A stretch of 64,000 bases of DNA, from contig NC_081354.1 of assembly GCF_030684315.1 (NCBI RefSeq), positions 36,967,789 to 37,031,788 of the forward strand, read 5' to 3'. A model generated the notes under the pieces. The model worked only from the letters and a program-made list of their open reading frames with translations, had not been told where the DNA came from and did no database searches. The DNA comes from Stegostoma tigrinum. Its lineage: Eukaryota. Position numbers and translations under genes: made by a program. This document shows positions 24,241-59,572 of this stretch, one piece after another (within the stretch, counting starts at the first letter, position 1; the number at the start of each line of letters is the position of its first letter).

Positions 24241-24246
24241 TTTATT
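24241..24246 (-). terminator. Polyadenylation signal AATAAA of JCHAIN
   Basis: AATAAA on the minus strand about 125 nt after the stop codon, in non-repetitive sequence. Confidence 0.7.
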
Positions 24247-24370: not shown

Positions 24371-24599
24371 TTATGGAGCATCCGAAAAAGAATTTGGATC
24401 TGCTGTTGTTTCAATAGGTATCTCTGTAGGTTTTTGAGCCAAGGGTTCCACTTGGTGCTTGGAGTATTTAGCAGCTCCTAAGTAGCGTTGATAATCTCTG
24501 CATGATTGGTCATCATGACCATAGCATTCATCAGCGGGTGGAGGTTTGGGCTTGCACTGAGGTTCTTGTGGAGATTCTGGTCGACCACAATTCTTGCAG
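24371..24599 (-). CDS. JCHAIN: JCHAIN coding exon 4 (CKNCGRP...DECYGHDDQSC...SDAP*)
   Basis: Acceptor tcttctcatag with phase-2 entry. CKNC and CYGHDDQSC match human CKKC and CYTYDRNKC. Stop TAA at 24373-24371. Confidence 0.95.
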
Positions 24600-27500
24600 C
24601 TATGAGAAGATATTTTATTTTAGATACAACTGTTATTGAATGCATAATACTGCTTTGTGCAATATCATTAAATGTTCAGAAAAGACCAAATATGCAGTCT
24701 TATTTTTGTCATTAATATTCCAATTCATTTAGCATGTGCCAAAACTCTTGCCTTCAGGAGGGGAAATATATATGGCTAGGCAAAGAATTTAAAGATAATA
24801 TAAAGTAAAAAACCAAAGCATATCATATTACAAAGGTAAGTGAAAGGCTGGAAGAATGGGAAACATTAAAAGATCAACAAAGGGTTGCTAAAATGTAATG
24901 AGAAGAGCAAAGGTAAATTATGAAAAAAATGTTCAAAATCTAAAGACGGACAGCAAACACTTCTGTGTGTGTATAAAAGGAAAGAGAGTAGCTAGAGTGT
25001 ATGTTGTTTCCTTGGAGGATAAGACTGGAGAGTTAATAGTGGTTCCAGTCTTGCTCCAGGAACATGAGTGGGGGAACACAAATGTCAAAGTAACTAAATC
25101 AATATTTTTCTGCAGTTTTCATGGTGAGGCCATTAACACCAACCCAATGGTGACAGGGAAAACAGAAGTTCCACAAATTGATAACTTGGAAGAGTCATCA
25201 TTACTAAGGAAAATGTACTAAGCAAACTATTGGGATTGAAGACAGACAACTTTCCAAGGCTTGATGGCCTACATCTTAGAGTCTTAAAGGAAGTGGCAGC
25301 AAAGGTAGTGGGTCCATTGGTTATAATATCCCAAAATTTCTGGATGCAGGAAAGGTTCCAGTTGATTGAAAAAATGCTAATGTAATGCCCTTATTCAAAA
25401 AGACAGGGAGGCAGAATGTGGGAAACTACACACCAGTTAATTACCGACCAGTCATTGGCAAATTGTCTGAATCCATAATTCACAAAGTAATAACAGTGCA
25501 TTTGGGAAGCCAAAATGCAACCCATCAGTGTCAGTGTGGCATTATGAAGGGTAAATCATGTTTGATTAATTTGCTGGAGTTCTTCAAACTGCATCAAGCA
25601 AGTTGGATAATGGGGATCCTGCAGATGTAGTATATGTGGATTTCCAGAAACCATTGTCAAAGTACTGTGCAAAAGATTAATACACAAGGTAATATCAAAT
25701 GGGGTTAGGGGTAAATTATTAGCTTGGAAAGAGGATTGACTAACCAATTAAAACAGATAGTTAGGATAAATGGGCTATTTCTAGTCAGCAAGATGTGCAA
25801 GATTGGGGTGGACAGGTTGTGGTTCTTGGGCCCAACTGTTGATAATCGAGATTAGTGACTTGGATGTGGGGATAGAGAATACTATAGCCAAATTTGCATA
25901 TGATGCTAAAGTAGGAGGGAAAATAAGTTGTGATGAAGAAATAAGAAATTTACAAATGGATGTGGAGAGGTTAGGTGAATGGGCCAAAATGTTGGGGAAG
26001 TTTAACATGAATAGGCTTGAGGTTATCTATTTTGGTCACAGGAATGGAAAGGCAATTTATTAGTTAAATGAAGTGAAACTTCAGAGTGCTTTGGGTGCCC
26101 ATGTGCATGAACTACAGAAAACTAGTATGTTGGTATAGACATTTTTGCTAAAGGAAGAGAGCATTAAAGAAGTGTTGCTACAACTGTACAGGGGAATAGT
26201 GAGACTGCATCTGAAATGTTGTGTCCTCTTACTTGAGGGAGGATGCAGTTGTATTGCAGGCAATTCAGAGGAGATTTGCTAGGTTGATTCCAAAGATGAG
26301 AGGGTTTGTCTTAAGAGAGAGTAAGCAGTTAATACCAGCACTCTCTGGAGATTAGAAGAATGAGAGGAAATGTAACAGGTATGTGAGATACTAAAGGGAA
26401 TTAACAAAATAGACATAGAAAGGATGTTTTCTCATGTGGGCAATCTACATAAGAATGTAAGAAATAGGAGCAGGAGTAAGCCATCTAGCCCCTAGGGCCT
26501 GCGCTGCCATTTGATAAGATCATAGCTGATCTTTTCATGGACTCAGCTCCAGTTACCTTCTGGAACAAGAACAAGATCACTTAGAATAGGAGTTAATAGT
26601 TTTATGATAAGGGGTGGCAGATTTAAAATGGGGATCAAGAAATGTTATTTCTCTCAAAGGGATATAAATCTGGAATTCTCTACCCCAGGATGCAGTGATT
26701 TCTGGACCATTGAGTAAATTTTAAGGAGGACATAGAGACTTGCAGGAAGTCAAGAACAACAGAGAGAATTTTGAAATAGTGATTGCATATCCAGAGCCAA
26801 TGCAGGCCAATGAGCACAGTACTGATTAGTGAACAGGTTTTAATATAAGGTCACAAGCAATATAGATTTGAATGATGTTGGATGGTTTGAAGTATAAGAT
26901 CAAGCAGAAGAGTATTGGAATAGTTAAGCCTTAAAATAATGAAGGAATGGATAATGATTTTACCAACCGATGAGCTGCAGCAAAGCTGATGTTGAGAAGC
27001 AGGGGATAGTATTAGTTTTGGGCAGATGAGACATCAGAAGCTCGTCACAGGTTCAAAGTTATGAACACTCTTATATAGCCTCATAGAGGGCTATGTTTGG
27101 AGTTAAAAGAATGAAGCTTGTATTCAGGACTGAAGAGACAAGCTTAGATTGTCCAAATATTTAATTCGGACAAATATTTTCTCATTCAGCTCTGGATGTT
27201 GGACCAGCAGTTTAATAACTTAACAGCAGTGAAGAAGTAGAGCTGTATGTTATAAGTGTACAAATGAAAACTAACACTGGATTTTGACCAATATCATAGG
27301 AGGGCATTGTGCAAAAAAAGGACAGGGCCAAGGATTGATCTTTGGGCAACACCAGATGTATCTCTGTGGGAACAGTAAGAGAAACAATTTCAAGTGATGC
27401 TCTGGCTATGAGAAAATAGGCAAGACTGGAATCAGGCAGTAATAATTCCATCCAGCTGCACTACAGGAGAGACATTGGAGGAGAATTGTGTGGTCAACTT

Positions 27501-30500
27501 TGTCAAAGCTGCTGAGAAGTTGCATGAGACCACAAAATATAAGAGCAGATTTAGGCCATTAGTCCTATTGGGCCTGCACATGGCTGATATGTTTCTCAAC
27601 CCTATTGTCCTGCCTTCCTCCACTAACTCTTGATCCCCTCACCAATCAAGAACCTATCTATCTCTGCCTTAAATACACTCAATCACTTGACCTTCATAGC
27701 CTTCTGTGGCAATGCATTCTACAGCTTTAAGATTCTCAGGCTGAAGAAATTCCTCCTCATCTCAGTTCTAAGAGATTATCCCTTCAATATGAGGCTGTGC
27801 CCACAGGCCCTTATCTCTCATATTCTTGGAAACATCTCTGCCACATCTATTCTATTCAGGCGTCCCAGTATTCTTTTAAGTTTCAGTGACGTTTCCCCCT
27901 TCAAACTTGTAAACTCTATCAAGTACAGACACAGAGTTGTCAATCGCTCCTCATATCCAAGCCCTTCATCCCTAGAATCATTCTTGTAAAACTCTTCTGG
28001 GCCCTCTACAATGTCAACACATCCTTTCTTAGATACAGGGTCCAAAGCTACTCACAATATTCCAAATGTAGTTTGTCCAGAGCCACATACAGCCTCAAAA
28101 GTGCATCTTTGCTCTTGCATTTCAGCCCTCTTGAAATGAATGCTAACAGTGCATTTGCTTTCCATCTGCTAACTGAATTTGCATGTTAATCTTAAGAGAA
28201 TTGTGAAGTAGGACTAGCCTCTTTGTATTTCAGATTTCTGAAACTTTTTCCCATGTAGAAAATAATATATGCCTCTATTCTTCCTACCAAAGTCCACCAA
28301 ATTGTATTCCATTTGCTACTTCTTTGCCCACTCTCCTAGCCTGCCCAAGTCCTTCTGCAGCTTCCCTGCTTCCTTAACACTACCTGCCCCCTCTTATCTT
28401 TGTGCCATCTGCAAACTTAGCAGTAATGCCCTCAGTTCCTTCAACCATATCGTTAATAGATAATATGAATAGTTGTCGTCCCAACATAGGCCACTGCGGA
28501 ACTCCACTAGTCACTGACAGCCTTCCTGAAAAATCCCTTTATCCCTATTTTCTGCCTTCTTTCAGTCAGCCAATCCCCTATTCATGCCCTTGCCCCAAAA
28601 TTATGGGCTTTTATCTTATTTAGCACTCTCTTTTGCAGCACCTTGTCAAAGGCCTTCTGGAAATCTAAATGGAACACATCTACTGACTCTCCTTTGCCTA
28701 ACTTATGCAATACCAAGACAAGAAGGGAAAGTTTACACTTGTCACGGTTTCATAATATACCATTTACGATTTTTTAAAGAACTATCTTGATAATGTGGCT
28801 CAGGCAGAAACCTGATTGGACTGGTTCAGCAGGATGTTCTAGAAAAAGGTGATGATGGATTTGGAGGTGATAGCTTCCAGTTTCAGAGATGGTACCCTTG
28901 GAGGTAAGAAGAACAATTAATTAGGTGGATGGTCTCTTGATATGCACTAAACTGTGCAACACTGAGGGAATGGACCTGTGGTAGAGTGATTGCTGCTGAA
29001 AACTACTCCCCTGCCCTTGTTTCTAACACCGCTTGCATTCTTTTCACTATGATTCCACCCTCAGAAACCACTCCCAAACCTTTCCCACTGGAATCTTCAT
29101 CCTGGGAGTCCAGGGGGTATTTTGCTGGTATCAGCTAAGCTGTCAATGAGTTTAGGAGTTATCATAAGACCAGACAATATCCGAGGACCAGGAAAGTTCA
29201 GAACTGAGAAAGGGTCACTGGACCCAAAATGTTAATTTTGATTTTTTTCTTCACAAATGCAGCCAGACCTGCTGAGCTTTTCCAGAAACTTCTGTTTTTG
29301 TTCCTGAAACATCAGCTTTCCTGGTCCTCTGATGCTGCCTGACCTATTGTGTTCCTCCAGCTCCACACTGACTCCAGCATCTGCAGTTCTTACTATCTCT
29401 GGAATTGTCATGTTCTGATTCGTTGGCAGCTCCAGTCAGGCAGGGCTTCCTGCTCTGGGGTCCTAATTCTGGCAGAAAACCTGCTGCAGCCAATCAGCTG
29501 TCTGCTTTCTGGAAAACCCAACAGCCTTTGTTACCTTAGTAAGCCTTGCATTTCCCTCTTGGAAGCTGTCCCACTTTTTAATCTAATTCAACAGCACAAA
29601 CATTTCATCAAGCCTTCAGTGATACTTTAGGAAGCAAGGAGATCAGGCAATACTTTGGAATGATAAAGGCACAGAAAGGTTGATTTTTTTTGGTGAACGT
29701 GATGATGCTGATAGGTATATAGGAGGGAGGCATAATACTTGAAGAGAAAGAGCAGTTAATAATATCAGTTAATACAGAGTCACTGGTTTATGAGAATACA
29801 AGTGTGGAGCTGGAGGAGCACAGCAGGCCAAGCAGCATCTTAGGAGCACAAAAGCTGACATTTCGGGCCTAGACCCTTCATCAGAAAGCTTGCCTGCTGT
29901 GTTCATCCGGATCCACACTTAGTTATCTTGGATTCTCCAGCATCAGCAGTTCCCATTATCTCTGGTTTATGAGAATAGGTTTGAGGGAACTGGAAATGGC
30001 CCTCTTGGCCAGTAAAAGTAAAACCTACCAGAAAATAAACATTACAAAGCAAATTAGCAATCAAAATCTTGCCATATGGTGTACAAAATCAACTAATCAC
30101 TCATGAGCAATCCCGTAATGTCTGTTTTCCATGTGCCATTCAATGTTCCCGTGCAGTATTAGCCCAAGTTCAAGTAGAAGTTGACAGCCCAAGCTTGCAA
30201 GCTGACCTTGCACAGCAGGTTGTCACAGGGAGATGCTGCAAGTCACCAAACGTGTGAATAGAATGGGTTATCATTTCGGAAAGGTTGGTCTTAAAGGTCT
30301 GTGCATGACACTGCATTTTGCTGGTGTCTGACTTCGTGCTTCTTGATAATGGCTGTACACCTTCAAGTGGGCTTGTTAAATCACCAAGTGTTTTGTGGAT
30401 CATTTCCAAAGCAACATTCTCCAACCAAAGGCTCATTTGAGTTCTTTTCAGCAGAGCACCTGAGTGACCTAGCCCGCTGCCATCTGTGTTATCTTTGCCC

Positions 30501-33500
30501 CCTAACCCAGAATACAGACCACTTATCCCTGATGTCTCAAACAATGAATTTCCTGCTTCTGTTCTGCTTTCCTTTTAATAATGCACACTGTCACTGTCTG
30601 AGCTGCAAGTGTGAAATTCTGATGAAATGCCTTCATCATCATTTTCTTCTTGCTCTTTGTCCAATTCTGCCTTGGTCACATTTTCAGAGTACCAGAAAGA
30701 AGAAAAACAGAAGAATGAAGCCATAGACATAGTAGGAACGCTGGAGAATCTAAGATAACAAGGTTGTAGAGCTGGATGAAAACAGCAGGCCAAGCAGGAA
30801 AGCTGACGTTTTGGGTCTAGACCCTTCTTTAGAAGAGGGTGTAGAACCGAAACATTAGCTTTCCTGCTCCTCTAGTGCTGCTTGGCCTGCTGTTTTCATC
30901 CAGCTGTACACCTTGTTATCTCAGAATGAAGTCATTTAGATTAGATTTTTTTTTAGATTAGATTCCGTACAGTGTGGAAACAGGCCCTTTGACCCAACAA
31001 GTCCACAACGCCCCTTGAAGCATCCCACCCAGACCCATCCCCCTATAACCCACACACCACTGAACACTATGGGCAATGGCCAATCCACCTAACCTGCACA
31101 TCTTTGGACTGTGGGAGGAAACCGGAGCACCCAGAGGAAACCCACGTAGACACGGGGAGAATGTGCAAACTCCACACAGACAGTCACCCGAGGCAGGAAT
31201 TGAACCCGGGTCCCTGGTGCTGTGAGGCTGCAGTGCTAACCACTGAGCCACCATGCCGCCCCATGGTGTGCTATAAAGTAGGACTTACATGCTTTCACTA
31301 TCTGGTAGGTTGTAAGACAGAAAAATTGTAGGTTGAGGGGTTAGTGACAAGTATCAGGTGAGGAAACTTTCATCTTCAGTGGCTTCAACTCATCCTCTAA
31401 CCATGGCCTCAGCAATGAAGCAGTCAGCTATCAACTCCATGGGAATTAAGACTTGCAGATTTCCATGCTCCTATCCATTAAGCTCCTGGTACTTTCAGTT
31501 TTTTGCCACCTTGTCCTGCTAGAGAGAGGAAGAGCATTGGTGAGTGTGGTGCAATTTATTTGGTTGATGTGGTTGTCATGGTTGAACATTTGGCAGCTTG
31601 TGCAAGTTGTGAGATGTATACCTGAGGCTTGCTGCAGTGCTATATGAATGAGGGGGTGGTAGAGCAAATGACTGTCTGGAGTGAGTCCTCAGTTACAAAG
31701 GCTGTTAGTAGGTTAGTGCTGGTGGTGTGATATATCGAACAATATCTGAGGAAGTGGTGCAGTTGACAGGGTAAGTCATTAAATTGCATTCTTTGACCTT
31801 GATCTCTTGGGTGAGATCATTGAACCTTTTGTGGTATTGCACCCACGTCCCTGATGTGACTGCTGGCATCAATCCATGTCTATCTGTTCCCACTTCATTC
31901 TGAGCATGTGTCTGGAGGGCATTCTTTGGTTACAGGACATCTTTCTTCTTACTCGCCAAATCCACCAAGGTCTAAAGCGTTGTTTTGAAGCGAACTTGGA
32001 TCCCACAACTCTCCCACATTGTGTCCATTCTTCAATGATTTTCAGATCAGAGACACTTCCTGCTTGACTGACAGGACCTGCTTCAGCCATCATGCACTTT
32101 TCCTTTGAAAGGCTCATTTGGCTTTAGGAATTGCAGGCTAGCTTTAAGTACTGCAGTTTAGCTTTAAGTACTGTAGGCTAGCTTTAAGCAGTGCAGGCTA
32201 ACTTCTTGTGTCAGCTTCTTGTGATATTTCCCTTTTTAATGCATCCAATCAATCAACAACATGATGAGCTGGCATAATAATAATGAAACTATTGAGTTGG
32301 ACAGGCAGTGCAATGTTGGTATGCTACGTTGCAATTGACAGGTATTGGTTCTTCATGCATCCTGATTCCCCCTGTGGTTTATGGTTGCTCCAGTTTTTAG
32401 TATCCCTAATGTACTACACCACCTATAATTGGTGTAGTTTTAGTTACTTACGGAACAACTTTGAGAAGCTGAGAAATTCACGATACCATTATACAGTTCA
32501 GGCAGTCTATATTCAATCAATACCTCTGTGGACACTCTCATGAATATGTTAAATCCCACTTTCTTCACTGAGAATTCTTTCTGAAATTGCAGTGTCTGGC
32601 TTCTGGCTTTCCTGGGTTCTCAGGTGTCTTTCCTTCTCATTTTCTCTAACCCTTAGGTTTTTCAGGCTTTTAAAACTGAATTTCCTCTGAAATTCTTGCA
32701 CTTGGTAAAATAGCTGAAAAAGTACCAATTTCTGCAGGTGAACAGAGTTTCTGCCACACTGCAGCTAAGTTGTTTCAGTGGCTTTAGAGGAAGAACAAGT
32801 TTGAGGAGAATTCTGACATTTTTGTCAGTGATTACTTCTTCATTCTTCAGCTCCATTTCTACTATTTTCAATATTGTCAGCTTAGCCCTCCATAAAACCA
32901 ACTGCCGAAGCTAGTAAATCAATGGCCAAATGGTTTGTGGTTTATGAATCTATCACACATATGTCAGTTCTTTCGAAGTGTTCTCAAATTTCTTCCTGTG
33001 GCTCAGTACTTTTTTCCATAACTTGGAAAGTTAAGCTTCTGCAAGGAGACATCCAGTGTTTTATTTTGATCTTGTGGAATCTGATTCCAGTGCCTTTGCA
33101 GATAGCGTTGTTCATATCTCAAGATCTTTGTGGAAAGAAATTTCTTCCAATTCTAGTTCTTTTGCAAATGGTTATCAATCTGTGATATTTGGCTGTACTC
33201 TCCAAATGAGGCAGATTCTCTTTACTGGTTCTGTCAAAAAAAACCTTCTCATTTTGTTTGCATTTCATCTCCCCCTAACCTTCCACTATAAAAAAAATCC
33301 TTTAGAGCCACCATACAGTTATTTCTGATTGGTCTGGTCCATTTGAAACTGGTAAAATTACTCATTATGAGTGTTAGTGGATTTTGTACACAAAGTGCAT
33401 AACATGCAGCAAAGTCTGAATTGTAACAATGGCCCCAAATCCGTACAGTTGCACATTACAAAAGTCACAAAAAAAAGCAATCATACAAATCTGAAATCTT

Positions 33501-36500
33501 GTAGACAAACTTGGTCCGAATGGGGGAGGTTGGATCTGAAATGTTCTCTCTGCTTCTCAAAGGAACTCTGAAATGAAAGAACAATTAACAGTAACTGAAG
33601 ATTACCAGAAACTTTCAATATATACTCCAAGAACATTTAATGTGTGAACTTTTTTATTTGCTGTTGAGATTTCATTCTGGCATTTACTAAAATCAATCAT
33701 TTAACATTTGATACAATGTAACTGAACAGGAAAATGCTAAACTGAGAGGGGGATGGATACTTAATAATATGAAAGGACAATTAAAATTACATTACATTTA
33801 AGTAATTTCACATTTCTCAATGAGGCAATGTGTGTAGTATAACTCAAACTGAACAGAAGTCAGTTTGGGCTTTTTCTTTCTGGCAGAAACTAAGAAGGTA
33901 GTTTCGAACCAACTGAATGACACATCATGCAATTGAGAGAGAGATAATGGGAACTGCAGAGGCTGAAGAATCCAAGATAACAAAGTGTGAAGCTGGATGA
34001 ACACAGCAGGCCAAGCAGCATCTCAGGAGCTCAAAAGCTGACGTTTCGGGCCTAGACCCTTCATCTGATGAAGGGTCTAGGCCCGAAACGTCAGCTTTTG
34101 TGCTCCTGAGATGCTGCTTGGCCTGCTGTGTACATCCAGCTTCACACTTTATCATCATGCAATTGAAACTGATTGTGTAATTCTATGACTCAAAACAAAC
34201 ATTATAATATTAAAAAAAATGAATATACTTTGTATAATGTATTGAGGGAAAGAACTCTGAGATATCATGGGATGGATCAAACTGATGATGATGAATTGCC
34301 ATCAACTGCTATCAGCAGGTTTTAGATGGTCTGGTACTTCATATAGTCACAGCATCTTCAATGCGGTGGTCATATAGCACCATGGTCATATAGGACAGCC
34401 ATTAAACCAGTAAAGGCAACTGCGCACCTGCTTTCTTTATATAAAAAATTGAATCCTTACAGTGTGGAAATAGTCCTTTAAGTCCATCAAGTCCATGCTA
34501 ACCCTCTGAAGAGCATCTCACCAAAACCCAGCCCCCTACCCTATCCCCAATTTTTACCTATCTAGCCTGTGTACTGATGACAATTTATATTCACCAATCC
34601 ACCCAAGCCTGGAAATCTTTGGACTGTGGGAGGAATCTGGAGCAAACCCACATAGAAACAGGGAGAACATGTAAACTCCACACAGATAGTCCCCTGAGGG
34701 TGGCATCAAACCCAGGTCCCTGGTGCTTTGAGGCAGTAGTGCTGCCCACTGAACAATCGGCCACTCTGTCCCCCAGTTCCTCCAACCGGAACTTTTTAAT
34801 CAGGTAGTAAGATTGCCCAAGATTTTTAATTTTATTTTTGTGTGAATAAAAGTAGAAATATAGAAGTAAATTTGACAGATTTTGTTTTGACCTGCGGCCT
34901 CATTGTGCACATGGAATTTTTATGTAGAACAGGGAAGTGGGATCATTTGTGTCCAATTTCCTATGTTTCTTACAAGAGAAGTGTGCTTTTCCTGGCATCC
35001 AATCTGACTGATGAATATTATCTACAATAAGTTTCTGGTAGTATGCTTTTCATTTATTTGACTGTATGGTGAATATAATCAGAAGTCAACAGTAACACTT
35101 ACATAATTTTTATATCTCTCGCCAGTTGTTCCACTTTTTCACCATTAGGCAGTTCAGTGACAATCATCTTAGATGACACCTCCAAAAGCTTACATCTTGA
35201 TGAAACTAAAAGGTGCCTTTCAGATTTAGCTGTAATGACAGAGATGGTTACAACTCTCTAAATCTGAAGTACTATCATTAAAAATGAGGAACTAGTGTTT
35301 CCTGTATTAGCAGCCCAGATGGAAGTTCTGTCAGATATTAATTGCCAAATATTGCAACTATTAATTTGTGAAAATAAGTTAGCTCTGGTTAGCAAATGTA
35401 CATCACAAAGCTCTTGTTAACCAAGTGAATCATGAAGGAATATAGCTATTTAATAGCTGCTGGACTGTGGATAACATCGTCAGGGTACCAACAAAAAGGT
35501 TTGAGAGGAAAAACAGCTGACCAGTATTCCACAAATATCACCAACCCCACCCCCACCCCAGGTTGATCAGCATCTGTTAATAGGGAATTTGCTTTCGCAG
35601 ACATTGATGCGATTCCAGAATTACCTAACATTATTATCATATAACAGGAAGAAAAACATACAAGCCAAATGATATTAAAATTATAAGCTTGTAAATAACT
35701 GATTTATCATTAAACTATTGTACTTTTTAAACCTATTAAATTATTGTAACAGAGAAAACTGCAGTGTTGATAAGATGGAGGTTGAAACCTTTAGAACCTG
35801 GGAAGAAATGAAATACTGGGTCCTCCATTAGCAACAGCATAATGAAAGAATACAATGTAAATTCACTAGGATGTTGTTTGATTTAAGAAATACAAATTGC
35901 GTAAAAGAAACATTGTGATTTAGCCACCTCAATCTAATGTGGATGACATTGCTGTTGCCCTCTTTGAACTCATAAGCTTTGTCCACTCATCAATGTACCC
36001 TTCTAACTTCCTATTGCCACCTATGTAACATGAGTGTCTAACTTTCTGTAAATGTTTTTAAACTTCTTATTTCTCCATCTAAGTCACTTCTTTATTTGGT
36101 ATGAATAATTTGTTGGTTTCAGGGAAAGCCCCAGGTGAGATCCCTGGGCCACACCATTTGTTACATCCTTGCCACTTAGACAATATTTCTTTTATCACTA
36201 CTCACTGTGAAAACAAGTACTAATCTATGCTATATTTTATTTCAGTACTAAGAATGTGCAATTTTTCTCATAATTTCTTCCAGCTAGACTAATCAAATGT
36301 TTTCTGGAAATTTATGTGAACAATCTCCATGGGTATTATTCCAGACAGCATGCAGGCTAGCAATGTTCTCAAACAAAAATCAACTCCATTAGTTAGATAT
36401 ACCATGGAATTTATTGCTGGCCCCAAGTGGCAGATCCGGTTGTGAGGTTATTTAATCAGGCAGGAGGGTGGCAAATGGAGATAGTGTCACCCTACCACTT

Positions 36501-39500
36501 TGACCATAATTAAGTCTGTGTCAGGACAGCTATGTAAAGTCTTTCCACCCTGTCACCAATTAGGGGCAGCACAGTGGCTCAGTGGCTAGCACTGCTGCCT
36601 CATAGCATTTGGGACCTGGGTTCGATTTCACCCTCGGGTGACCGTCTGTGTGGAGTTTGTACATTCTCCCCATGTCTGCATGGGTTCCCACCAGGTGCTC
36701 CAGTTTCCTCCCACAGTCCAAAGGTGTGCCTGTTAGGTGGATTGGCCATGCTAAATTGCCCGTAGTGTTCAGGGATGTGTAGATTAGGTGGGTTACAGGG
36801 GGACAGGCCTGGGTGGGATTCTCTGAATGTCAGCGTAGGCTTGTTGGGCCAAAGAGCCTGTTTTCACAGTGTAGGGATTTGATGAATTAGGGCCTTAAGA
36901 AGGCAATTAATACACCATTTAACAGCCTCATTACACTGCCCCTGCTATTAATCCAGCACTGTGGTGATCATCACATCAAGCAAGTTGCCTGTGAGCTCCA
37001 TTGGGGGGAAATGGTGTGGGGATCCTTTGAGCAAAGGAACTCAGTGCTATCGAGGGATTTGGCAGCTGGAAGCTTCTCCCTAGATAGCAGACAATTTTTT
37101 AAACAATTCTCTTCAAAAAAACAACATAAATTGAATTTATTTTCATGAAACAATACTTATTTATTCTATAATAAAAGAAAATAAAATAAAAGTAGATTTT
37201 CTAGATATGAACTAAAAACAGAAAGTGCTGGAAATACTCAAGTAGGTTTAGCAACATCTGTTAGAGGGAAACAAAATTAATGTTTCGAGTCGAATACTAC
37301 TGTTCTTCAGAACTTTCTTATACTTTCTTATGCTTCGGACTTTCATGCTTTGGACTTACTGAATTGTATTTGTTTCCTTAACCTTAGATAGACATTTTTT
37401 TTGTTTTCTTTTTAATAGTTGTTTTATATGTGGCTTTACAACACTGCATTTTAGTTTTGTGTATTTCACTATAAACTTGTTTTTTAAATATAATTCTATG
37501 CATTTAAACCGTTGTTCTTATGTTATTGCCATTTCCTGACTTTTCCATAAACCTTGATGGGGTTTTTGTTGAAAGCCTATGTTTCTTTAAAAATTGATTT
37601 CATTTTGATAAATTTATACTATATCTTTCACTTCATCATACTTATTTTAATTGCGGCTTGCTATATATATTAATTTGAATAGTCTAATCACAAAAATTTT
37701 GTTTTTGTATCCGGAAGTGCTCTTACACGCAACTGAGCAGTTTTTCTTTCATCACCAAATCACCCATAGTATTTTTTCACCTATTAACTGCCACCAGTAA
37801 GTCACGTATGTATAAAACTAGTTTTATATTTTACCCTTAAAATATCCCACCTGTGTAAAATGAATTAATTCCAGAGTGTGTACCTGGCTCACAACTGGCA
37901 CTGTTCGCTTAGTTTTAAGGGTAATTGACTTGTCTGAATTGTAATGAACTATGTATTGGCCATGTTTCTGCTGTCTTATCCTCTCAGGTTAATAAAAAAA
38001 ACAAAAAAAACGCTCTGAACAAACCACATAACCTCCTTAGATTGCTGGCACTCAACATTAGGGTGTTGATCTTTTCTAGAATAGAAAAGAAATTTATTGT
38101 CACGTGTAGTTTTATATGGAAAATGCAGTGAACAGTTTTATAAGTCACCACACCACACCGCACCTACATCAATGACAGAAGTAAAATTAAGACAATGTTC
38201 ATTACAGTTTACTTGGGGCTAGGATGGGGGAAAGCCAATCAGGGAACAATGGAATAAATGCCCTGAAAATGGATCCAGGATGAGACTGCCAGGCCACTGG
38301 AATTCTGGGCCATAAGCCTCGCTGAAGCAGACTGCCATGCCAGGCAGAGACTGCCACTCTTGGACGTGACCGCCAGCCGGGCTGCTGGAGTATCTGGTAG
38401 CCAAAGGCAAAGAAAACCTTTACCCTGGCCAAGACTGCCTCTCTGCTCTTCTGCGTTGGCTCCATTTTTTCCAAAATTTCCCTACATCTTTTCAATCCTG
38501 AAGAGATTAAAAATATATCCCTGCCCTGAATGTACCCAATTGTTCTAAACATTCACAACTCTCTGCTTGAAGAGATTCCTCCTTATCCAAGTCCTAAATG
38601 ATTGATCCTTTTATCTTGAAACTGTGTCCTGTGTGCTGGATTACCCAAACGAGGGACATAAAGCCCTACTATGTATTCAGTCGAGACCCTCGAAATGCTT
38701 CTTCAAAGTCTTGTATGCTTCAATGAGATCTCCTTTCCTTCTTCCAAAGGTAGGCCTGAATTTACACAGCCTCTTATTACAAGAAATCCTCTCATCCTGA
38801 GACTTTGTTGTATTGCTTCCAAGGCAAGTATATTCTTCCTGTGATTTCGAGACCCAAACAACAAATTGTGGTCCAGGTGTGTTCTTACCAAAGTCCTATA
38901 AAATTATAGCATGATTTTGTTATTCCTGTATTCCAATTCCATTTTGATAGATGCCAGAATGCCATTTGCCTTCCCAATGTTACTTGCTGTCCCTGCATGC
39001 TAACTTTGTGTTTCATGCGCAAGTGTACCCAGGACTCTGAGCCTCAATGTTTAAAAGTTTTTCCCTTAGTAAACAAAAATCTGCTTTTCCACCTTCAAGG
39101 CGCATGCCATCTGCCATCTTGTGTACTCATTAAACGTATCTAAATCTCTTTGCAGCCGCTGATATCTGTTTTGAGCTCTCCCAGGGTACTACATTTCTCA
39201 CCTGCCTTGCGTGCTCAAAGATAGAGAATGACAAGGTTATTTGATAACGTTAAAGTAAGAAGAAACCCATATTTTGATGAACTTGCCCGATTTGCCTTAG
39301 CATACAAACACAAATGAGATGGATGAAGATAATAAACTACAATAGTTCAACAGTAGCTGCATCTTTTCCAGTTTTAAACTTTATCCAAGGCTTGGATGCA
39401 GAACTTAAATGGACTATTCAGGACCTGGTCTGATAATCTTTCTGAATTTTTGTGAATATGTCTGCCCAAAATCATCATGGTCTGTGCAATAACCAAATGG

Positions 39501-40851
39501 AGGTGACCTGCCGGGTCTAGGCCCGAAACGTCAGCTTTTGTGCTCCTGGGATGCTGCTTGGCCTGCTGTGTTCATCCAGCCTCACATTTTATTATCTTGG
39601 AATCTCCAGCATCTGCAGTTCCCATTATCTCAGCAAATGTATTGACTTGTTAATATCCTGATGGAGACATTAGATGCATGTTGAACAATTAAATATTCTT
39701 ATATGAGCTGATTTGTCCAAAAAAAATGAACCTAGCAGAGCTAGGTCACTTCTTCTCAAATGAAATAGAAAGTTAGAGAGTATGTGATCTACTAAGCATT
39801 AGCTCAGAAAGATCCTGACTAATGAAGTATGCAAATTAATAAATAAGGTTACTAGTTTGTTCAATTTGTTGATGAAAGCAGAATCCTCACATTGTAGTAA
39901 TTAATGTCAGAAACTCGTGTTAGGAGACATTCAGCAGAGGCTAAGTACTAACCCAAAAGAAAGAGAAAATCATGGAAAAAACTGTATGAGCTAAGGACTA
40001 TCTCTATTGTAACCCTTGTGAGCTTTAATATAACATACACAGAAATATGTGAAATCATTTCAGAGCATGCTTTTTGGTGTGACCTACAATGTTGTATGAG
40101 TACTACTGTCATTTTCTTTAGAACTCAAATGTTGAACCAAAGTGTTCTGCACTTGTCAATGCTCACAACAGGAAAAAAAACATTCTTATGGATTTATTCA
40201 AAGATGAGCTGGGACGTTTTCCCAGTGAAAAGATTAACATTTGCCCCTTAACCAACATCTTTGAAATAGCTCAGTTTTTCAAAAGAATGATCTCTACTGA
40301 AGCGATTATATTCTTTTCTATTTTGAAATGCGCAGTAATCTATAGTCACATTAGTTTATGCTTAGTCTTCAGTTGTGTTGCGATGAAAAACTAAATTACT
40401 TTAACAACAGGACTGACAGATACATTTAAAATGCATGTTCAGACATGGTGGAAAGAACTATCGGATAAATTAACAATCTTTGCATGATGTTGCCTGTGTC
40501 AAAATTATGTATAAAGAGACCATTTTAGTTTTGTTTTCAAGAAGAAGCTTACATAACATGATACACAACATCAGTGTTCATAAATAGTCATTCAAAATTC
40601 AACTTATACTGATTATATTGATGAGCTTTGACAAACTCTCATACAAGTATCCTCACAACCCAAGTCCAAAGATGCTGTGTCTAATTATCATAGAGAAGGC
40701 TGTCTCCCTGATTCTGTGGGCTAACAAAGCAGGAAGTATTTGCTCATCATAATGCCATAATTATAATGATAGTTAAAACCTTACCTGCTGAAAGAGCTGT
40801 GTAAAATAGAACTGCTGCAAGTACTCCCAACATATCTTTACTCTTCATCAT
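24371..40851 (-). CDS. JCHAIN: Immunoglobulin J chain gene, 4 coding exons: join(complement 40851-40785, 35229-35103, 33567-33487, 24599-24371), 504 nt, 167 aa
   Basis: Manual splicing gives an open frame with GT-AG introns in phases 1, 2, 2. It contains the J-chain hallmark I-V-P-L-x-x-R-E-N-I-S-D-P-T-S-P-x-R-T-x-F-V-Y (N-glycan site NIS), followed by CxxC and CY-x6-C, and has an N-terminal signal peptide. Confidence 0.97.
24735..26750 (+). mobile_element. Degenerate CR1 LINE ORF2 (JCHAIN intron 3)
   Basis: PLFKKTGRQNVGNYTPV...GKSCLINLLEFF; IAKFAYDAKVGG...LQMDVERLGEWAK. Confidence 0.88.
26750..27525 (-). mobile_element. L2 LINE fragment
   Basis: gtggtcaactttgtcaaagctgctgagaag (antisense LSAAFDKVDH); antisense GVAQRSILGPVLF. 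Confidence 0.7.
27525..28700 (-). mobile_element. CR1 LINE RT + 3' end
   Basis: GLGYEERLTTLCLYLIEF; antisense gtggagttccgcagtgg (SGVPQ) and tttccagaaggcctttgacaaggtg. Confidence 0.85.
29799..29961. mobile_element. Fold-back Penelope pLTR insertion, 16-bp TSD ctggtttatgagaata
   Basis: TSD at 29783-29798 and 29962-29977; inverted arms. Confidence 0.88.
30725..30922. mobile_element. Fold-back Penelope pLTR insertion, TSD agaatgaag(c/t)cat
   Basis: TSD at 30712-30724 and 30923-30935; arms meet at about 30830. Confidence 0.85.
30940..31262 (-). mobile_element. HE1 SINE, full length
   Basis: Antisense ggggcggcatggtggctcagtggttagcactgcagcctcacagcaccagggacccgggttcaattcc..., with A/B boxes and a (tctaa)n tail. 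Confidence 0.93.
31700..32200 (-). mobile_element. Degenerate Myb/SANT-like (trihelix) ORF, probable PIF/Harbinger transposon remnant
   Basis: Frameshifted SKFAS...LRMKWEQI...GTWVQYHKRFNDL, resembling the PRFS..W..I..RT..QC.KRFNDL pattern of Harbinger DNA-binding proteins. Adjacent 20-bp tandem repeat at 32131-32200. Confidence 0.6.
32560..33250 (-). mobile_element. Possible highly decayed Ty3/Gypsy gag remnant
   Basis: Scattered frameshifted motifs (KLTILKIVEM, QCGR..H, KCKN) in the order of a fish Gypsy gag and zinc knuckle. Many stops. Confidence 0.3.
33487..33567 (-). CDS. JCHAIN: JCHAIN coding exon 3 (VPLRSRENISDPTSPIRTKFVYKISDF)
   Basis: 81 nt, acceptor ttctttcatttcag, donor gtatga, phases 2 to 2. 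Very close to human VPLNNRENISDPTSPLRTRFVYHLSDL. Confidence 0.98.
33937..34152. mobile_element. Fold-back Penelope pLTR insertion, 14-bp TSD catcatgcaattga (JCHAIN intron 2)
   Basis: Palindrome centred at 34066. TSD at 33923-33936 and 34153-34166. Intact CTGATGA...GAAACGTC at 34065-34092. Confidence 0.93.
34455..34775 (-). mobile_element. HE1 SINE (diverged)
   Basis: tttggactgtgggaggaatctggagca...aaactccacacagatagt. Confidence 0.85.
35103..35229 (-). CDS. JCHAIN: JCHAIN coding exon 2 (AKSERHLLVSSRCKLLEVSSKMIVTELPNGEKVEQLARDIKII)
   Basis: 127 nt, acceptor ctctgtcattacag, donor gtaagt, phases 1 to 2. Aligns to human ERIVLVDNKCKCARITSRII...VERNIRII. Confidence 0.93.
36563..36885 (+). mobile_element. 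HE1 SINE, full length
   Basis: ggggcagcacagtggctcagtggctagcactgctgcctca...ctgggttcgattt...ctgtgtggagtttgtacattctcccc. Confidence 0.92.
38480..39160 (-). mobile_element. CR1 3' fragment
   Basis: VRTHLDHNLLFGS...ILALEAIQQ. Confidence 0.7.
39513..39630 (+). mobile_element. Penelope pLTR 3' fragment (single arm)
   Basis: gggtctaggcccgaaacgtcagcttttgtgctcc...gcatctgcagttcccattatc. Confidence 0.85.
40785..40851 (-). CDS. JCHAIN: JCHAIN coding exon 1 (signal peptide MMKSKDMLGVLAAVLFYTALSA + 1 nt)
   Basis: ATG at 40851, plus a second in-frame ATG at 40848 with better -3 context. Hydrophobic leader with GVLA as in the mammalian J-chain leader. Phase-1 donor G|GTAAGG at 40784-40779. Confidence 0.92.
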
Positions 40852-41000
40852 GGGACTATCTACTGCAATGATCTTCCTTTACTGTGGCAGCTGGTTAATT
40901 GGCCTCAACAGTAGCTCAAGCAAAATGAAACAGCATACTGTTTTGCCTGTCGTATGAGTTTGTTTCTTTTAATAACTCCAAGCTAGTTTCTGTTCCATTT
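40852..41000 (-). promoter_or_regulatory. JCHAIN 5'UTR/proximal promoter with EICE (GGAACAGAAA, 40996-40987), MEF2-like A/T box (GGAGTTATTAAAAGAAA, 40979-40963) and E-box CAGCTG (40888-40893)
   Basis: Motifs read directly 40-145 bp upstream of the ATG. GGAANNGAAA is the exact PU.1/Spi-B-IRF4/8 composite consensus. Function is inferred. Confidence 0.6.
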
Positions 41001-50797: not shown

Positions 50798-51470
50798 GAT
50801 AATGGGAACTGCAGATGCTGGAGAATCCAAGATAACAAAGTGTGGAGCTGGATGAACACAGCCGGCCAAGCAGCATCTCGGGAGGACAAAAGCTGACGTT
50901 TCAGGCCTAGACCCTTCATCAGAGAGGGGGATGGGAAGAGGGTTCTGGAATAAATAGGGAGAGAGGGGGAGGAGGACCGAAGATGGAGAGAAAACAAGAT
51001 AGGTAGAGAAGAGAGTATAGGTGAGGAGGTAGGGAGGGGATAGGTTAGTCCAGGGAAGATGGACAGGTCAAGGAGGCGGGATGAGGTGGTAGGTAGGAAA
51101 TGGAGGTGCGGCTTGAAGCGGGAGGAAGGGATGGGTGAGAGGAAGAACAGGTTAGGGACGCAGAGACAGGCTGGGCTGGTTTTGGAATGCAGTGGGGGGA
51201 GGGGAAGAACTGGGCTGGTTTTGGGGTGCAGTGGGGGAAGGGGAGATTTTGAAGCTTGTGAAGTCCACATTGATACCATTGGGCTGCAGGGTTCCCAAGC
51301 AGAATATGAGTTGCTGTTCCTGCAACCTTCGGGTGGCATCATTGTGGCACTGCAGGAGGCCCATGATGGGCATGTCGTCTGAGGAATGGGAGGGGGAGTT
51401 GAAATGGTTAGCTTTTGTGCTCCTGAGATGCTGTTTGGCCTGCTGTGTTCATCCAGCTCCACACTTTGTT
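50798..51470 (-). mobile_element. 5'-truncated Penelope element with inverted terminal pLTR piece, 15-bp TSD atattgcaacacact
   Basis: EQQLIFCLGTLQPNGINVDF. TSD at 50783-50797 and 51471-51485. Confidence 0.93.
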
Positions 51471-52885
51471 ATATTGCAACACACTATTGACGTTGCTGCT
51501 TCATGTGAAACCTGAAACCTAACAGAGGAGGGATCACTAACCAAATTGTCAGTGGCTGCACATTCTCTGGACTGGCAAGTCAAAGGACTGAGAAACTAGC
51601 ATTGGCTTTGCTATCAAGTTAAAACTACAAAAAATTGGGGTATTCCTCTACTTCTATGAACAAGTATGCAACAACAGTTAGTGAAAATGTTCCAACACAA
51701 ACTAGAACTAGCGTTATCAAATACCAACTCTATGAAGACCTGGACAGAGCTATCGCAACTACTTCTTGGAGGACAAACACTTGTGACGGGACACTCTAAT
51801 GCTGACACTCAGGCCTGGGACCGTGCTCTGGGATATCAAGGTGTGGGGAAGTGCAATAAATGTAATGCTTGTCCTCAGTTTTTGCACCCGCTGGAATAAT
51901 GTCAATCGCAAACACAGTTTTCAAACTGAAAGCAAAGTATAAAAATATTTCAATGCTCCCAAGGTCTAAGCAGAGACATTAAATTGGTTTCATTTTTACC
52001 CAGCAGAGCATGTAAATGATGTTATGATCATCATCATTAGGAAAAGAGTGCAGGGCTCTGCAAGCCACACATGATCCCTATGGATCTCTACTCCACAATG
52101 AACATTTACTATTGCACTAAAATGAAGAACAGTGAGCTCTTAATCCTGAAAATTTAAATGTGCAGAAACTGGTATCTACACAGTGCTGGGATTGATTCAG
52201 GTTCGGACATAAGGGACTGCTGGGGCGGAAGAAAGCCCAAGTATTGATGTTGAAGTGGCATAGTCAGCTGTCTGGATCCACAATGCCGGAAGCTGGTAAT
52301 GAAGTCCTGAGAGCACAGAATATAAATGACTGAGATTTGTTTGATAAAAATGAGTTTGAATTAAAGAACCGCTACAGGAAAAGAATGAGCATGGCTGGGA
52401 GCAGAGATGCTGCTCAGAAATCACTCCCTAGAGAGCAAAAGGAATCTGCAACAGAAGCTGCACATGAAACAAGACACATGTAGGCCAAGGGAGACAGGCA
52501 GCTGTGCTGATCATCACAACCTACTCATAAGGCACTGCAGACTGTCTCTCTCTCTCTCTCTTCTTTTTTCCCTCTCTCTCTCTTGCAGTGGCTCACCTGT
52601 TCACAACATGGGAATTATGGGAATGTATTGGACAGGGCAGTTACCAAAGAGCACTGGGCTGAGTAGTTCAGGGTCAGACGTGCCTAACTGCCCATCCACC
52701 ATAAATAAGAATGCTATATAAGTTTCTGGTACAAATCCAAATGTCAAAATCTGGACAGCGAGTTCTGTTACTGAGCTTGATGAAAGCATCATATACCAAT
52801 CCTCAAGAAAAGTTCTGTATATCAATGGGACCCCAGTACTAATGAACAAATTTTAGCCAAATAATGTACAATAATGTACAATATA

Positions 52886-53235: not shown

Positions 53236-53716
53236 AAATTTGGAAAAATCCATGGAAACCATGAAAGGCAAGGAAACACAAAAGTTCTTTAGCAGACTTT
53301 TGAGAAGAAAGGACTCGGGAGCCAGTTACAGGCATAGGTAACAATCATAAACTGACATAAAAGGGGAAATGGCTTAGAAGCGGTTCTCATACATCAGCAT
53401 TAAGTTGCAATCCAGTGAGTACAGCTCCCTGATCAGTTGGATTTCATACACTTGGGCAATTGGAGGCTTTGGATTAAATGAGAAATCGTCTTATAGAGAT
53501 CACGGGGGCATAAAACGGAGATCCAGGAATTCTAGACAGTCTAAGCTCATGGCAAGCAAGACCAGAGCTCTACACAGGAATAAGCTATCAGCACCACCTG
53601 CTTTCCCCGTGACTACACTTCCACATGATGGCACTGAAACAGGTAGATACAGATGAGAAATAGGAGGTGACTGAGATTAAATACTTGGAAAACATCACAG
53701 GAGCAGGAAAAGAAGT

Positions 53717-54811
53717 GGAATAACAAAGTGTGGAGCTGGATGAACACAGCAGGCCAAGCAGCATCTTAGGAGCACAAAAGCTGATATTTCGGGCCTAGAC
53801 CCTTCATCAGAAAAGAGGGAGGGGAAGAAGGTTCTGAAATCAATAGGGAGGCGGGGTGCGTATCGAAGATGGATTGAGGAGAAGATAGGTGGAGAGGAGA
53901 CAGACAAGTTAAAGAGGCAGGGATGGAGCCAGTAGAGGTGAGTGTAGGTGGGGAGGTAGGGAGGGGATAGGTCAGTCCGGGGAGGATGGAGAGGTCAAGG
54001 GGGTGGGACGAGGTTAAAAGGTAGGAAATGGAGGTGCGGCTTGAGGTGGGAGGAGGGATAGGTGAGAGGAAGAACAGGTTAGTGAGCCGGGGTTGAGCTG
54101 GGCTGGTTTTGGGACGCAGTAAGGTGAGGGGAGATTTTGAAGCTTGTGAAATCCACATTGATACTGTTGGGCTGCAGGGCTCCCAAGCGGAATATGAGTT
54201 GCTGTTCCTGCAACCTTCGGGTGACATCATTGTGACATTGCAGGAGGCCCAGAACAGACATGTCATCTAAGGATTGGGAGGGGAAGTTGAAATGGTTTGT
54301 GACTGGGAGGTGCAGTTGTTTATTGTGAACCGAGCGTAGGTGTTCTGCAAAGCGGTCCCCAAGCCTCCGCTTGGTTTCCCCAATGTAGAGGAGGCCACAA
54401 CGGGTGCAGCAGATGCAGTATACCACATTGGCAGATGTGCAGGTGAGCATCTGCTTGATGTCGAAAGTCTACTTGGGGCCTGGGTTTGGCGTGAGGGATG
54501 AGGTATGGGGGCAGGTGTAGTACTTCCTGTGGTTCCGGGGAAAGTGCCGGGTGTGGTGGGATTGGAGGGGAGTGTGGAGTAGACAAGGGAGTCACGGAGA
54601 AAGTGGTCCCTCCAGAAGGCAAAAAAGGGTGGGGATGGAAAATTGTCTTTGGTGGTGAGGTCCGATTGTAGATGGTGGAAGTGTCAGTGGATGATGCATT
54701 GGATCCAGAGGTTAGTGGGGTGTCATGTAAGGACGAGGGGGATTCTCTTTTGACGGTTATTGCAGGGATGGGGTGTGAGGGATGAATTTTAGGAAATATG
54801 GGAAACACGGT
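53717..54811 (-). mobile_element. Penelope-like element, GIY-YIG region + pLTR
   Basis: TCTSANVVYCICCTRCGLLYIGETKRRLGDRFAEHLRSV...EQQLIFRLGALQPNSINVDF (ORF 54079..54450). Confidence 0.94.
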
Positions 54812-54844
54812 TTGGACTGGAATACCTTGCTGGTGGTTGCCCTG

Positions 54845-55370
54845 GTTGCCCTGTTACAGGAAGGGTATTATTAAACTGGAGAGGGTTCAGAATAGATTTA
54901 CCATGATGTTACCAGGAATGCCAGGAGGACTTGAGATATAAGAATAGACTGAAAAGACTGGGACAGTTTTCACTGGAGCAGAGCAGGTTGAAGAGTGACC
55001 TTATTGATGTTTATAAAATAATAAGCGGCATGGGTAAGGTGAATAACAAGGGTTCTTGCTTGGTAGGAGAATTCAAAATTAAGGGGCATATTTTTAAGAT
55101 GAAAGGAGAATGATTTAAAAAGAACTTGAGGGGCAACCTTTTAACACAGAGAGTGGCTCATGTGTGGAATGAACTGTCAAAGGAAGTGGTGGATGCGGAT
55201 ACAGTTACAACATTTGAAAGACATTTGTGTATTTTAAAGAATAGGAAAAGTTTGCAGGGATATGGGCCGAGTGCACGCAGGTGGGACTAGTTTAGTTTGG
55301 GAGCATGGTCAGCGTGGACTGGTTGGATCAAAGGGTCTGTTTCTATGCTATTTGATTCTATGACTCAAAC
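54845..55370 (+). mobile_element. HER1/CR1 3' end
   Basis: RLKRLGQFSLEQSRLKSDLIDVYKII. Confidence 0.85.
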
Positions 55371-55589: not shown

Positions 55590-57900
55590 GAGATAGAAAC
55601 AACTGCAGATTCTGGAGTCAGAGATAATTCAAAGTGGAGTTGGAAGAACACAGCAGGCCAGGCAGCATCAGAAGAGCAGGAAAGTTGACATTTCGGGTCA
55701 GGACACTTCTTCAGAAATGGGGACGGGGAAGGGAGCTCAGAAATAAATAGAGAGGAGGGGTGGGGCTGGTGAAGGTAGGTGGGATGGTGATAAGTGAGTG
55801 CAGGTGATGATTGGTGGGGATTGGTCAGTGAGTTGGGAGGAGCAGGTAGGTGGGAGAGACAATGGGCAGGTTGTGTCAGGTCAAGGAGGTAAAGATGAGA
55901 GGGAGGATTGGTCATGGAATGAGGTCAGGGGTGGGGAGATTTTGAAACTGGTAAAATCCACATTTTAAGCCATAGGCTCTCGTGGCGGAATATGAGGTGC
56001 TGCTCCTCCTGATTGCGAATGGCATCTCTGTGACATTGGAGGAGGCCCAGGATGGATATGTCACCCAGGGAGTGGGGTGGGGAGTAAAAATGGTTGACGA
56101 CTGGAAGGTGTTGTTTGTCACAAACAGAACACAGATGCTCTGCAAAATGGTTTCTGAGCTTCTGCTTGGTCTTACTGATGTAGACGAGGCCACATCAGGA
56201 GCAGCGGATGCAGTAGACTGTTCAAGCTCCTCGTGGAAGCATGATGCAGTGGTGATACAGTTGTCAATGTAGTGGAGGAAGAGGTGGAGGATAGTGCCAA
56301 TGAAGCAGCTGAAGAAGGACTGTTCAACGTATCCTACAAAGACGCATAGCTTGAGCCATGCAGATGTCCATGGCCACCCCCTTAGTCTGTAGGAGGTGGG
56401 AGGAATTAAAGGGGAAGTTTTTAAATGTAAGGATGAGTTGGGTTAAGCAGATGAGGGTGTTTGTGGAGGGAGACTTTGTTGGGCCTGTGGGAGAGGAAGA
56501 AGCAGAAGTCTTTTAGGCCATCCCGGTAGGGGATACAAGTGTACAGGGAAAGTGTGCTCCCATAAGGAGCTTGCACAGTTTATTAACTTTACTAACACCT
56601 TTCACCTCAACCTTAAGTTAACCTGGAACATCTCCGATACCTCCCTCTCCTTCCTGGGCCTCGCTGCCTCCATCTTTGGTGACCATCTCAAAACCAACAT
56701 CTTTTCCAAGCCCATCAGTTCCCACAGCTACCTAGACTACACCTCCTCTCACCCACCTTCCTGCAATAGCCCCCACTCCCAATTCCTCTGCCTCCACCGC
56801 ATTTGCTCCCAAGATGGGACTTTCCACCTCTGCACATCCCAAATGTCCTCCTATTTCAAGGACTGCAACTTCTTCCCTCTGGTGATCAAAAATGCCCTCA
56901 ACCGCATCTCTTGCAATTCCCACACATTTGCCCTCACATCCCCTCACCCCAACAAAAATAAAACAGAACGCCCCTTGTCCTCACATATCACCCCACCAAA
57001 CTCTGCATCCAACGTATCATTCTCAGTCACTTCTGCCACCTACACTCCAACGCCAGAATCAAAGCGATATTTGCTTCTCCACCCCTTTCTACCTTTCATA
57101 GGGAGCGCTATCTCCGTGACTCCCTCATCCGCTCCATACTCCCCACTAACCCCGCTACCCCCGGCACCTTTCCGTGTAATCATAGGAAGTGCTACACCTG
57201 CCCCTACACTGCCTCCTTCACATCTCTCCTCACCTCCATCCAAGGCACCAAACACACCTTCCACATTAGGCAGGGTTTATTACCTGCGTATCCAACAACT
57301 TGACCTACTGCATCTGCTGCTTCCAACATGGCCTCCTCTACATTAGTGAAACCCAGCGGAAGCTGAAAAACTGCTTTGTAGAACATCTCACTCTGTTTGT
57401 GACAAATGACAACGTCTTCTGATTACCAACCATTTTAAGCCCCCCTCCTACTCCATGGGATGACATGCCCATCCTGGGCCTTCTCCAGTGTCACAATGAT
57501 GCCACCTGCAAACTGGAGGAGCAGCACCTCATATTCCGCCCTGAGAGTCTACAGCCCGATGGCCTATCTATGGATTTTACCAGTTTCAAAATCTCCCTAC
57601 CCTCAGCCTCATCCTATGTCCAGCCCTCCCTCTTAGCCCTGCCTCATTGACTTATCTGTCTTGTCTTCCACCTATCTGCTGCTCCCAACTCACTGGCTAA
57701 TCCCCACACTCCCTATCTGCACTCACCTATCACCATCCCACCTACCTTCCTCAGCTCCACCCCTCCTCTCTCTATTTATTTCTGAGCTCCCTTCCCCCTC
57801 CCCATTTCTGAAGAAGGGTCCCAACCCAAAATGTCAACTTTCCTGCTCCTCTGATGCTGCCTGGCCTGTTGTGTTCTTCCAGCTCCACACTGTGTTATCA
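55590..57900. mobile_element. Penelope-like element with inverted halves (minus 55590-56550, plus 56550-57900): RT thumb, GIY-YIG, pLTRs
   Basis: FINFTNTFHLNLKLTW...KPISSHSYLDYTSSHP...SQFLCLHRICS; EEQHLIFRPESLQPDGLSMDF. pLTRs at both ends in opposite orientation. Confidence 0.9.
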
Positions 57901-59514: not shown

Positions 59515-59572
59515 ATCTTTAACAAATATAACTATGTCAGCAAAATCTTTAACAAATATAACTATGTCAGCA
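59515..59572 (+). repeat. 30-bp tandem duplication
   Basis: atctttaacaaatataactatgtcagca at 59515-59542 and 59545-59572. Confidence 0.9.

Follow-up and report, generated by a model that had tools for sequence, protein, structure and literature searches.

The 64-kb window analyzed here, meaning the whole 64,000-nucleotide stretch of DNA from the zebra shark, a carpet shark, carries on its minus strand an intact, single-copy gene for J chain, the small antibody joining chain. Judging by analogy with human and mouse J chains, its product likely caps the IgM pentamers of plasma cells through one disulfide bond and without mucosal transport, a reading that we hold with a probability of roughly 85%. 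The gene itself adds nothing new. A sequence-only reading had described it as hidden, yet RefSeq already contains an annotated protein of identical sequence and, in the part of Dataset S1 consulted, its exon sizes and phases are tabulated in print (Kawasaki et al. 2024; PMC10801876), and thus the locus was already known. A comparison of its cysteines with those of other species is of modest value. As far as our searches show, and within the literature covered, the only lead beyond print is the loss of two cysteines in galeomorph sharks together with the retention of a third that is left without a partner.

The four coding exons span positions 24371-40851. The coding part of exon 1 (40785..40851, minus strand, 67 nt) begins with the ATG, encodes a predicted signal peptide, and ends at the phase-1 donor GTAAGG. 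Exon 2 (35103..35229, minus strand, 127 nt) carries Cys35 within the motif C-K-L and has the phase-2 donor GTAAGT, whereas exon 3 (33487..33567, minus strand, 81 nt, phase-2 donor GTATGA) encodes the RENISDPTSP (NISDP) block with its N-glycan sequon, Asn73-Ile-Ser, along with Phe85 and Tyr87. The coding part of exon 4 (24371..24599, minus strand, 229 nt including TAA) adds Cys93, Cys96, Cys107, Cys117, and Cys125 and an elasmobranch-type tail. On the same strand, intron 1 (35230..40784, 5555 nt, phase 1), intron 2 (33568..35102, 1535 nt, phase 2), and intron 3 (24600..33486, 8887 nt, phase 2) all have GT-AG boundaries. Splicing yields a coding sequence of 504 nt for 167 amino acids with no internal stop. 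The model proposed from the letters of the DNA, which named no strand, is thereby reproduced in full, with four exons of 67/127/81/229 nt, GT-AG junctions in phases 1-2-2, an uninterrupted protein of 167 residues, introns of 5.6, 1.5, and 8.9 kb, and the RENISDPTSP block, now placed in exon 3. In the consulted part of Dataset S1, jchain of both whale shark and zebra shark is listed with exons of 67/127/81/226 nt, without the stop codon, in phases 1-2-2 (PMC10801876).

The exon 1 peptide has a peak at residues 5-23, as judged by hydropathy only, and in the matching zebra shark entry the signal peptide ends at the exon 1/2 boundary (PMC10801876, part of Dataset S1). A candidate polyadenylation signal, AATAAA, lies about 125 nt 3' of the stop codon (24241..24246, minus strand) and would presumably be used. 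A candidate promoter element, GGAAnnGAAA (40987..40996, minus strand), which we take to be an Ets-IRF-type site, precedes the ATG by about 140 nt. It was one of six motifs in the promoter scan and occurs 4 times in the window versus 3.7 expected by chance, so only its position is suggestive. The same scan found no octamer, MEF2, or PRDM1 site within 1 kb.

The identity of the product as a J chain is virtually certain. It agrees at 167/167 residues with the zebra shark J chain-like protein in RefSeq (XP_048395789.1) and at 155/167 and 152/167 residues with the J chains of whale shark and nurse shark (AAO14897.1), respectively. Exact agreement with the annotated zebra shark protein and close agreement with AAO14897.1 make the splice junctions credible. 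A search with exon 4 matched whale shark and epaulette shark J chains, with 89% identity to the whale shark exon-4 peptide, and the protein cluster of the whale shark also contains the zebra shark RefSeq protein and AAO14897.1. When the whale shark J chain was searched by tblastn, exons 1-4 were matched in order with E values of 2e-9, 1e-21, 7e-12, and 1e-42. Exons 2-4 were matched by all of 13 shark and ray J chains and exon 1 by nine of them. The best match elsewhere in the window had an E value of only 0.044, which indicates a single J chain copy within these 64 kb.

Profile and structure comparisons lead to the same identification. The exon 3 peptide alone scores 42.8 bits against Pfam PF15097 (cut-off 27); the exon 2 peptide matches weakly (13.2 bits, profile positions 2-38), and the exon 1 and exon 4 peptides, searched singly, gave no Pfam match. 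In a sequence search of the PDB with the whale shark protein, eight of nine rows were J chains, all with E < 1e-14, and the ninth had an E value of 0.42. A structure model based on 96 sequences, with a mean pLDDT of 62 that rises to about 85 in the three-strand core and falls below 50 at residues 122-167, retrieved J chains as all of its top 15 Foldseek matches, with low TM-scores of 0.27-0.36. In a tree, the window product nests with whale shark and nurse shark J chains with support 100/99. With an open spliced frame, best matches that are all J chains, and PF15097 above its cut-off, the earlier view that a complete shark-type J chain gene is present is upheld, and the protein and profile comparison proposed for checking it gave J chains as its best matches. 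A second, divergent paralogue was considered and rejected, given that the consulted part of Dataset S1 has one jchain row per galeomorph species, all with CKL (PMC10801876), and that the tree tracks species groups.

The cysteine pattern of the protein was compared in an alignment of the window product with 125 proteins, in which the profile search contributed the best 120 of 147 matches. Columns were scored for the eight cysteines of a primate J chain, with the last one accepted within two columns. In this alignment, Cys35, 93, 96, 107, 117, and 125 occupy cysteine positions 1, 3, 4, 5, 6, and 7. Leu37 stands at position 2, that of human Cys15, and position 8, the last cysteine, is absent. Among the matches listed, all 12 galeomorph rows lack positions 2 and 8 and keep position 7 (Cys125). 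These rows represent 10 species, presumably from three orders. Counted among them are the window product and the RefSeq protein identical to it, and one species contributes two rows. Within a 28-row tree, in which a midpoint root was used for drawing only, 10 galeomorph rows fall on one branch (100/99).

None of the nine other cartilaginous-fish rows among the matches listed has this pattern. Five retain all eight cysteines, two skates lack positions 7 and 8, a sawshark lacks position 3, and the elephant shark lacks positions 3, 7, and 8. The remaining 105 rows among the matches listed all have positions 2 and 7, and position 8 is missing in three that resemble partial or alternative-tail models. 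No row named as lungfish or coelacanth is among the aligned proteins. The five complete sets belong to a sevengill shark and four rays, and an elasmobranch-type tail follows in four of the five. The equivalent of human Cys69 is missing and Cys15 kept in the sawshark, the elephant shark, two frogs, and a wallaby; among the matches listed, no aligned row lacks both tailpiece cysteines (the Cys15 and Cys69 equivalents).

These assignments differ in part from earlier ones. Hohman and colleagues in 2003 reportedly counted three cysteines as missing. The consulted part of a later study describes shark J chain as being without Cys3 and Cys6 (Tacchi 2013; PMC3743840), an assignment that conflicts with the present alignment, which is bridged by the rays and the sevengill shark. 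We found no discussion of a partnerless cysteine in the literature searched, including the available portions of PMC10663602 and PMC3125105, and older J chain papers may have one.

Structural and mutational work on mammalian J chains suggests how the zebra shark protein might operate. As described in the available sections of these reports, J chain in mouse secretory IgA bonds two tailpieces by Cys14 and Cys68 and grips Fc domains with two disulfide-closed wings (PMC7707832), and docking on human IgM begins via Ile40, Phe61, and Tyr63 (PMC11729874). The equivalents in the window product, found by ungapped alignment, are Ile64, Phe85, and Tyr87; among 96 aligned J chains, Phe85 and Tyr87 are invariant and Ile64 is nearly so. 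If the shark protein acts as its human and mouse counterparts do, the signal peptide would take the chain into the endoplasmic reticulum, Asn73 would be glycosylated, and Ile64, Phe85, and Tyr87 would dock the chain on the tailpieces of a nascent pentamer. On alignment only, internal bonds are predicted between Cys35 and Cys117 and between Cys96 and Cys107, and Cys93 (human Cys69) may bond one mu tailpiece. The C-terminal hairpin needed by pIgR would stay open and Cys125 would have no internal partner. Closure of this hairpin by a bond of the Cys109-Cys134 type is not predicted, the last cysteine being absent in 12/12 galeomorph rows, and the tetrapod-type set of eight cysteines with two tailpiece links (Cys15 and Cys69) is represented by six of the eight.

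Human mutants without these parts still form pentamers, which makes capping through one link and without mucosal transport the most likely reading. In the sections of one study that were available (PMC11729874), human C15S J chain still gives rise to pentamers that are secretion-competent, though in smaller amounts, a single cysteine in each of the CxC and CxxC motifs suffices, and deletion of hairpin 3 retains most pentamer formation, although this loop is required for pIgR. With its docking residues, one CxC and two CxxC cysteines, a hairpin 2 that can be closed, and an open hairpin 3, the zebra shark protein would be the natural equivalent of two human mutants that are tolerated. One-link capping without receptor transport is also in line with reviews, consulted in part, according to which nurse shark J chain is incorporated into polymeric immunoglobulin (PMC4279169, PMC5192425). 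From these comparisons, capping of IgM pentamers by the zebra shark protein appears highly probable, and somewhat better than even odds can be given to Cys93 as its only tailpiece link.

Some observations count against the one-link reading. Hairpin 2 has 10 residues between its cysteines versus 19 in a primate, and deletion of human hairpin 2 is harmful and leads to aberrant assemblies (PMC11729874, in part). Cys15, whose equivalent is lost here, is termed pivotal in the same partial source, with a shift to hexamers in vitro when it is missing. This missing cysteine might also suggest a pseudogene or an assembly artefact in which CKL is a sequence error. However, the frame is open, the splice sites are canonical, and each of the 10 galeomorph species examined has CKL, the nurse shark (AAO14897.1) among them. 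Its conservation across three shark orders effectively refutes that explanation.

The one-link model also leaves the retention of Cys125 in 12/12 galeomorph rows unexplained. A tentative and rather unlikely alternative is that the galeomorph J chain has been rewired to keep two links, such that Cys125 now forms the heavy-chain bond that Cys15 used to make, or is joined to another partner such as the tail of IgW or IgNAR, and covalent closure of the ring would persist at both sides. The combination of absent positions 2 and 8 with a kept position 7 is consistent with such a change, as is the placement of the group on one branch, and position 7 is gone as well in the three other cartilaginous-fish rows that lack position 8 (two skates and the elephant shark). 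The sequence diverges directly after Cys125. Furthermore, human C15S-C69S J chain remains covalently attached to IgM, from which its authors infer that other J chain residues reach the tailpiece cysteine (PMC11729874, in part). Against this, the Cys125 region is of low confidence in the structure model (pLDDT <50), and neighbors such as His120 and Asp126 are conserved too, such that Cys125 may serve local structure. In mouse secretory IgA, moreover, Cys14 bonds tailpiece C, whereas wing 2, the one opened by Cys7, touches another chain (CH3A) (PMC7707832, in part). Finally, the sawshark, the elephant shark, and three of the 105 other rows cope without Cys3 or a spare cysteine, indicating that one link can suffice.

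A further rearrangement can be imagined in which all six cysteines pair up internally in three bonds, one of them perhaps Cys93-Cys125, and the chain is held in the pentamer mostly by non-covalent contacts. The even number of cysteines would permit this arrangement, and human J chain makes many non-native disulfides before assembly, with C15S-C69S giving many pentamers in vitro (PMC11729874, in part). We regard it as improbable, because the Cys93 block is spaced identically to the human tailpiece-binding site and Cys93 is kept in 12/12 galeomorph rows. One-link capping by way of Cys93 continues to be the preferred reading.

The relationship of the gene to chemokines deserves separate attention. 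JCHAIN has been proposed to derive from a CXCL gene (Kawasaki et al. 2024; PMC10801876), and the four-exon 1-2-2 layout common to J chain and CXCL genes, which the sequence-only reading had pointed out, is likewise published there. That part of its chemokine argument stands, but it overlooked that exon 2 encodes C-K-L where most J chains have CXC, the motif that normally underpins the link. The consulted table carries the remark 'CKL (not CXC)' on five sharks, including the zebra shark entry (pI 7.75) (PMC10801876, Dataset S1 in part). CXCL genes also agree with the J chain gene in where exon 2 places the first cysteine (position 36, PMC10801876, Dataset S1 in part). The zebra shark J chain differs from CXCL chemokines in having no CXC motif and no match to a chemokine profile or fold. 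No chemokine Pfam profile matched the four exon peptides, no chemokine was among the 43 Foldseek matches listed for the moderate model, and three chemokine motif patterns run over the window gave nothing chemokine-like. The last result is expected, since the window flanks reach out about 23 and 24 kb, whereas in whale shark and zebra shark the distance to the nearest cxcl gene upstream is about 46-47 kb and that to anxa5 downstream about 26-27 kb (PMC10801876, Dataset S1 in part). That the protein acts chiefly as a chemokine-like secreted factor, apart from antibodies, might be entertained from the published ancestry, the reported expression in shark muscle (PMC10801876), and a near-neutral pI of 7.8. 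The missing motif, profile, and fold matches make such a role very improbable.

The introns hold repeats that had been anticipated in part. The families assumed here for CR1-type and Penelope-type (GIY-YIG) elements are assigned by motif. In intron 1, a SINE-sized repeat lies at 36563-36877, a CR1-type remnant at about 38540-39040, and a Penelope-type end at 39513-39640. Intron 2 has a short repeat (34581-34752) and an inverted pair of Penelope-type ends (33973-34159) that forms a near-perfect palindrome with 93-nt arms, 95% complementary and 1 nt apart. Intron 3 holds two CR1-type reverse-transcriptase remnants, both degraded (about 25340-26070 on the plus strand and about 27610-28700 on the minus strand), along with several Penelope-type ends. 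The earlier listing of CR1, Penelope, and SINE insertions is matched by these elements, the last by a repeat of SINE size, whereas its L2 elements were not recovered in the introns by motif search or by tblastx against the flanks. Similarity within the window covers at least 8% of intron 1, 26% of intron 2, and 16% of intron 3, versus 24% of the window, these values being lower bounds. Pfam searches of 135 intron open reading frames of at least 45 amino acids, covering all but one short stretch of intron 3, gave six weak matches, all below cut-off, and no hidden gene or intact reverse transcriptase; ARAGORN found no tRNA genes. Elsewhere in the window, Penelope-type remnants with a GIY-YIG-like peptide occur at about 4790-5515, 50800-51480, 53710-54850, and 55590-57900, short ends of these elements recur at up to about 20 sites, and short tandem arrays lie at 32121-32204 (period 20), 5130-5241 (period 39), and 59515-59572 (period 30).

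The value of these comparisons lies mainly in what they say about shark J chains as a group. In this comparison, the unusual nurse-shark-type J chain is specific to galeomorphs, and the presence of all eight mammalian cysteines in the sevengill shark and four rays bears on the view of the elasmobranch C-terminus as primitive and unfit for transport, and fits poorly with the idea that it is uniformly divergent. The comparison also offers a natural test of which cysteines the assembly of IgM pentamers requires. It is conceivable, though we consider it doubtful, that a single galeomorph step removed Cys15 and the last cysteine together and freed Cys125 as a new anchor to the tails of IgM (or of IgW or IgNAR). 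If this is true, the nurse shark J chain, the model of the field, would be derived, and the J chain ancestral to elasmobranchs would have had eight cysteines and a closed hairpin of the pIgR type, like those of the sevengill shark and rays today.

Compared with known J chains, the window product shows no protein-level difference from zebra shark XP_048395789.1 (LOC125456578 in the consulted part of Dataset S1). The nurse shark protein is equal in length and has the same six cysteines, with 15 substitutions, most of which (11) fall in exon 4, and a pI of 8.2 versus 7.8 here. Its entry, AAO14897.1, we take to be the J chain of Hohman et al. 2003. The squalomorph shark and ray J chains, those of Heptranchias, Pristis, Mobula, Hypanus, and Narcine, are 55-58% identical and share the core and the short hairpin 2, but unlike the zebra shark protein they have the full set of eight cysteines, with both the CXC motif and the last cysteine present. 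Relative to human and mouse J chains (PDB 6kxs, 7jg1, and others), the zebra shark protein lacks Cys15 and the last cysteine, its hairpin 2 is about half as long, its C-terminal third is unrelated, and it is not acidic. Nevertheless, residues 8-125 can be aligned with them (E 6e-21 with the whale shark query), and common to all are the N-glycan block, the equivalents of Ile40, Phe61, and Tyr63, six cysteines, and a four-exon gene with phases 1-2-2.
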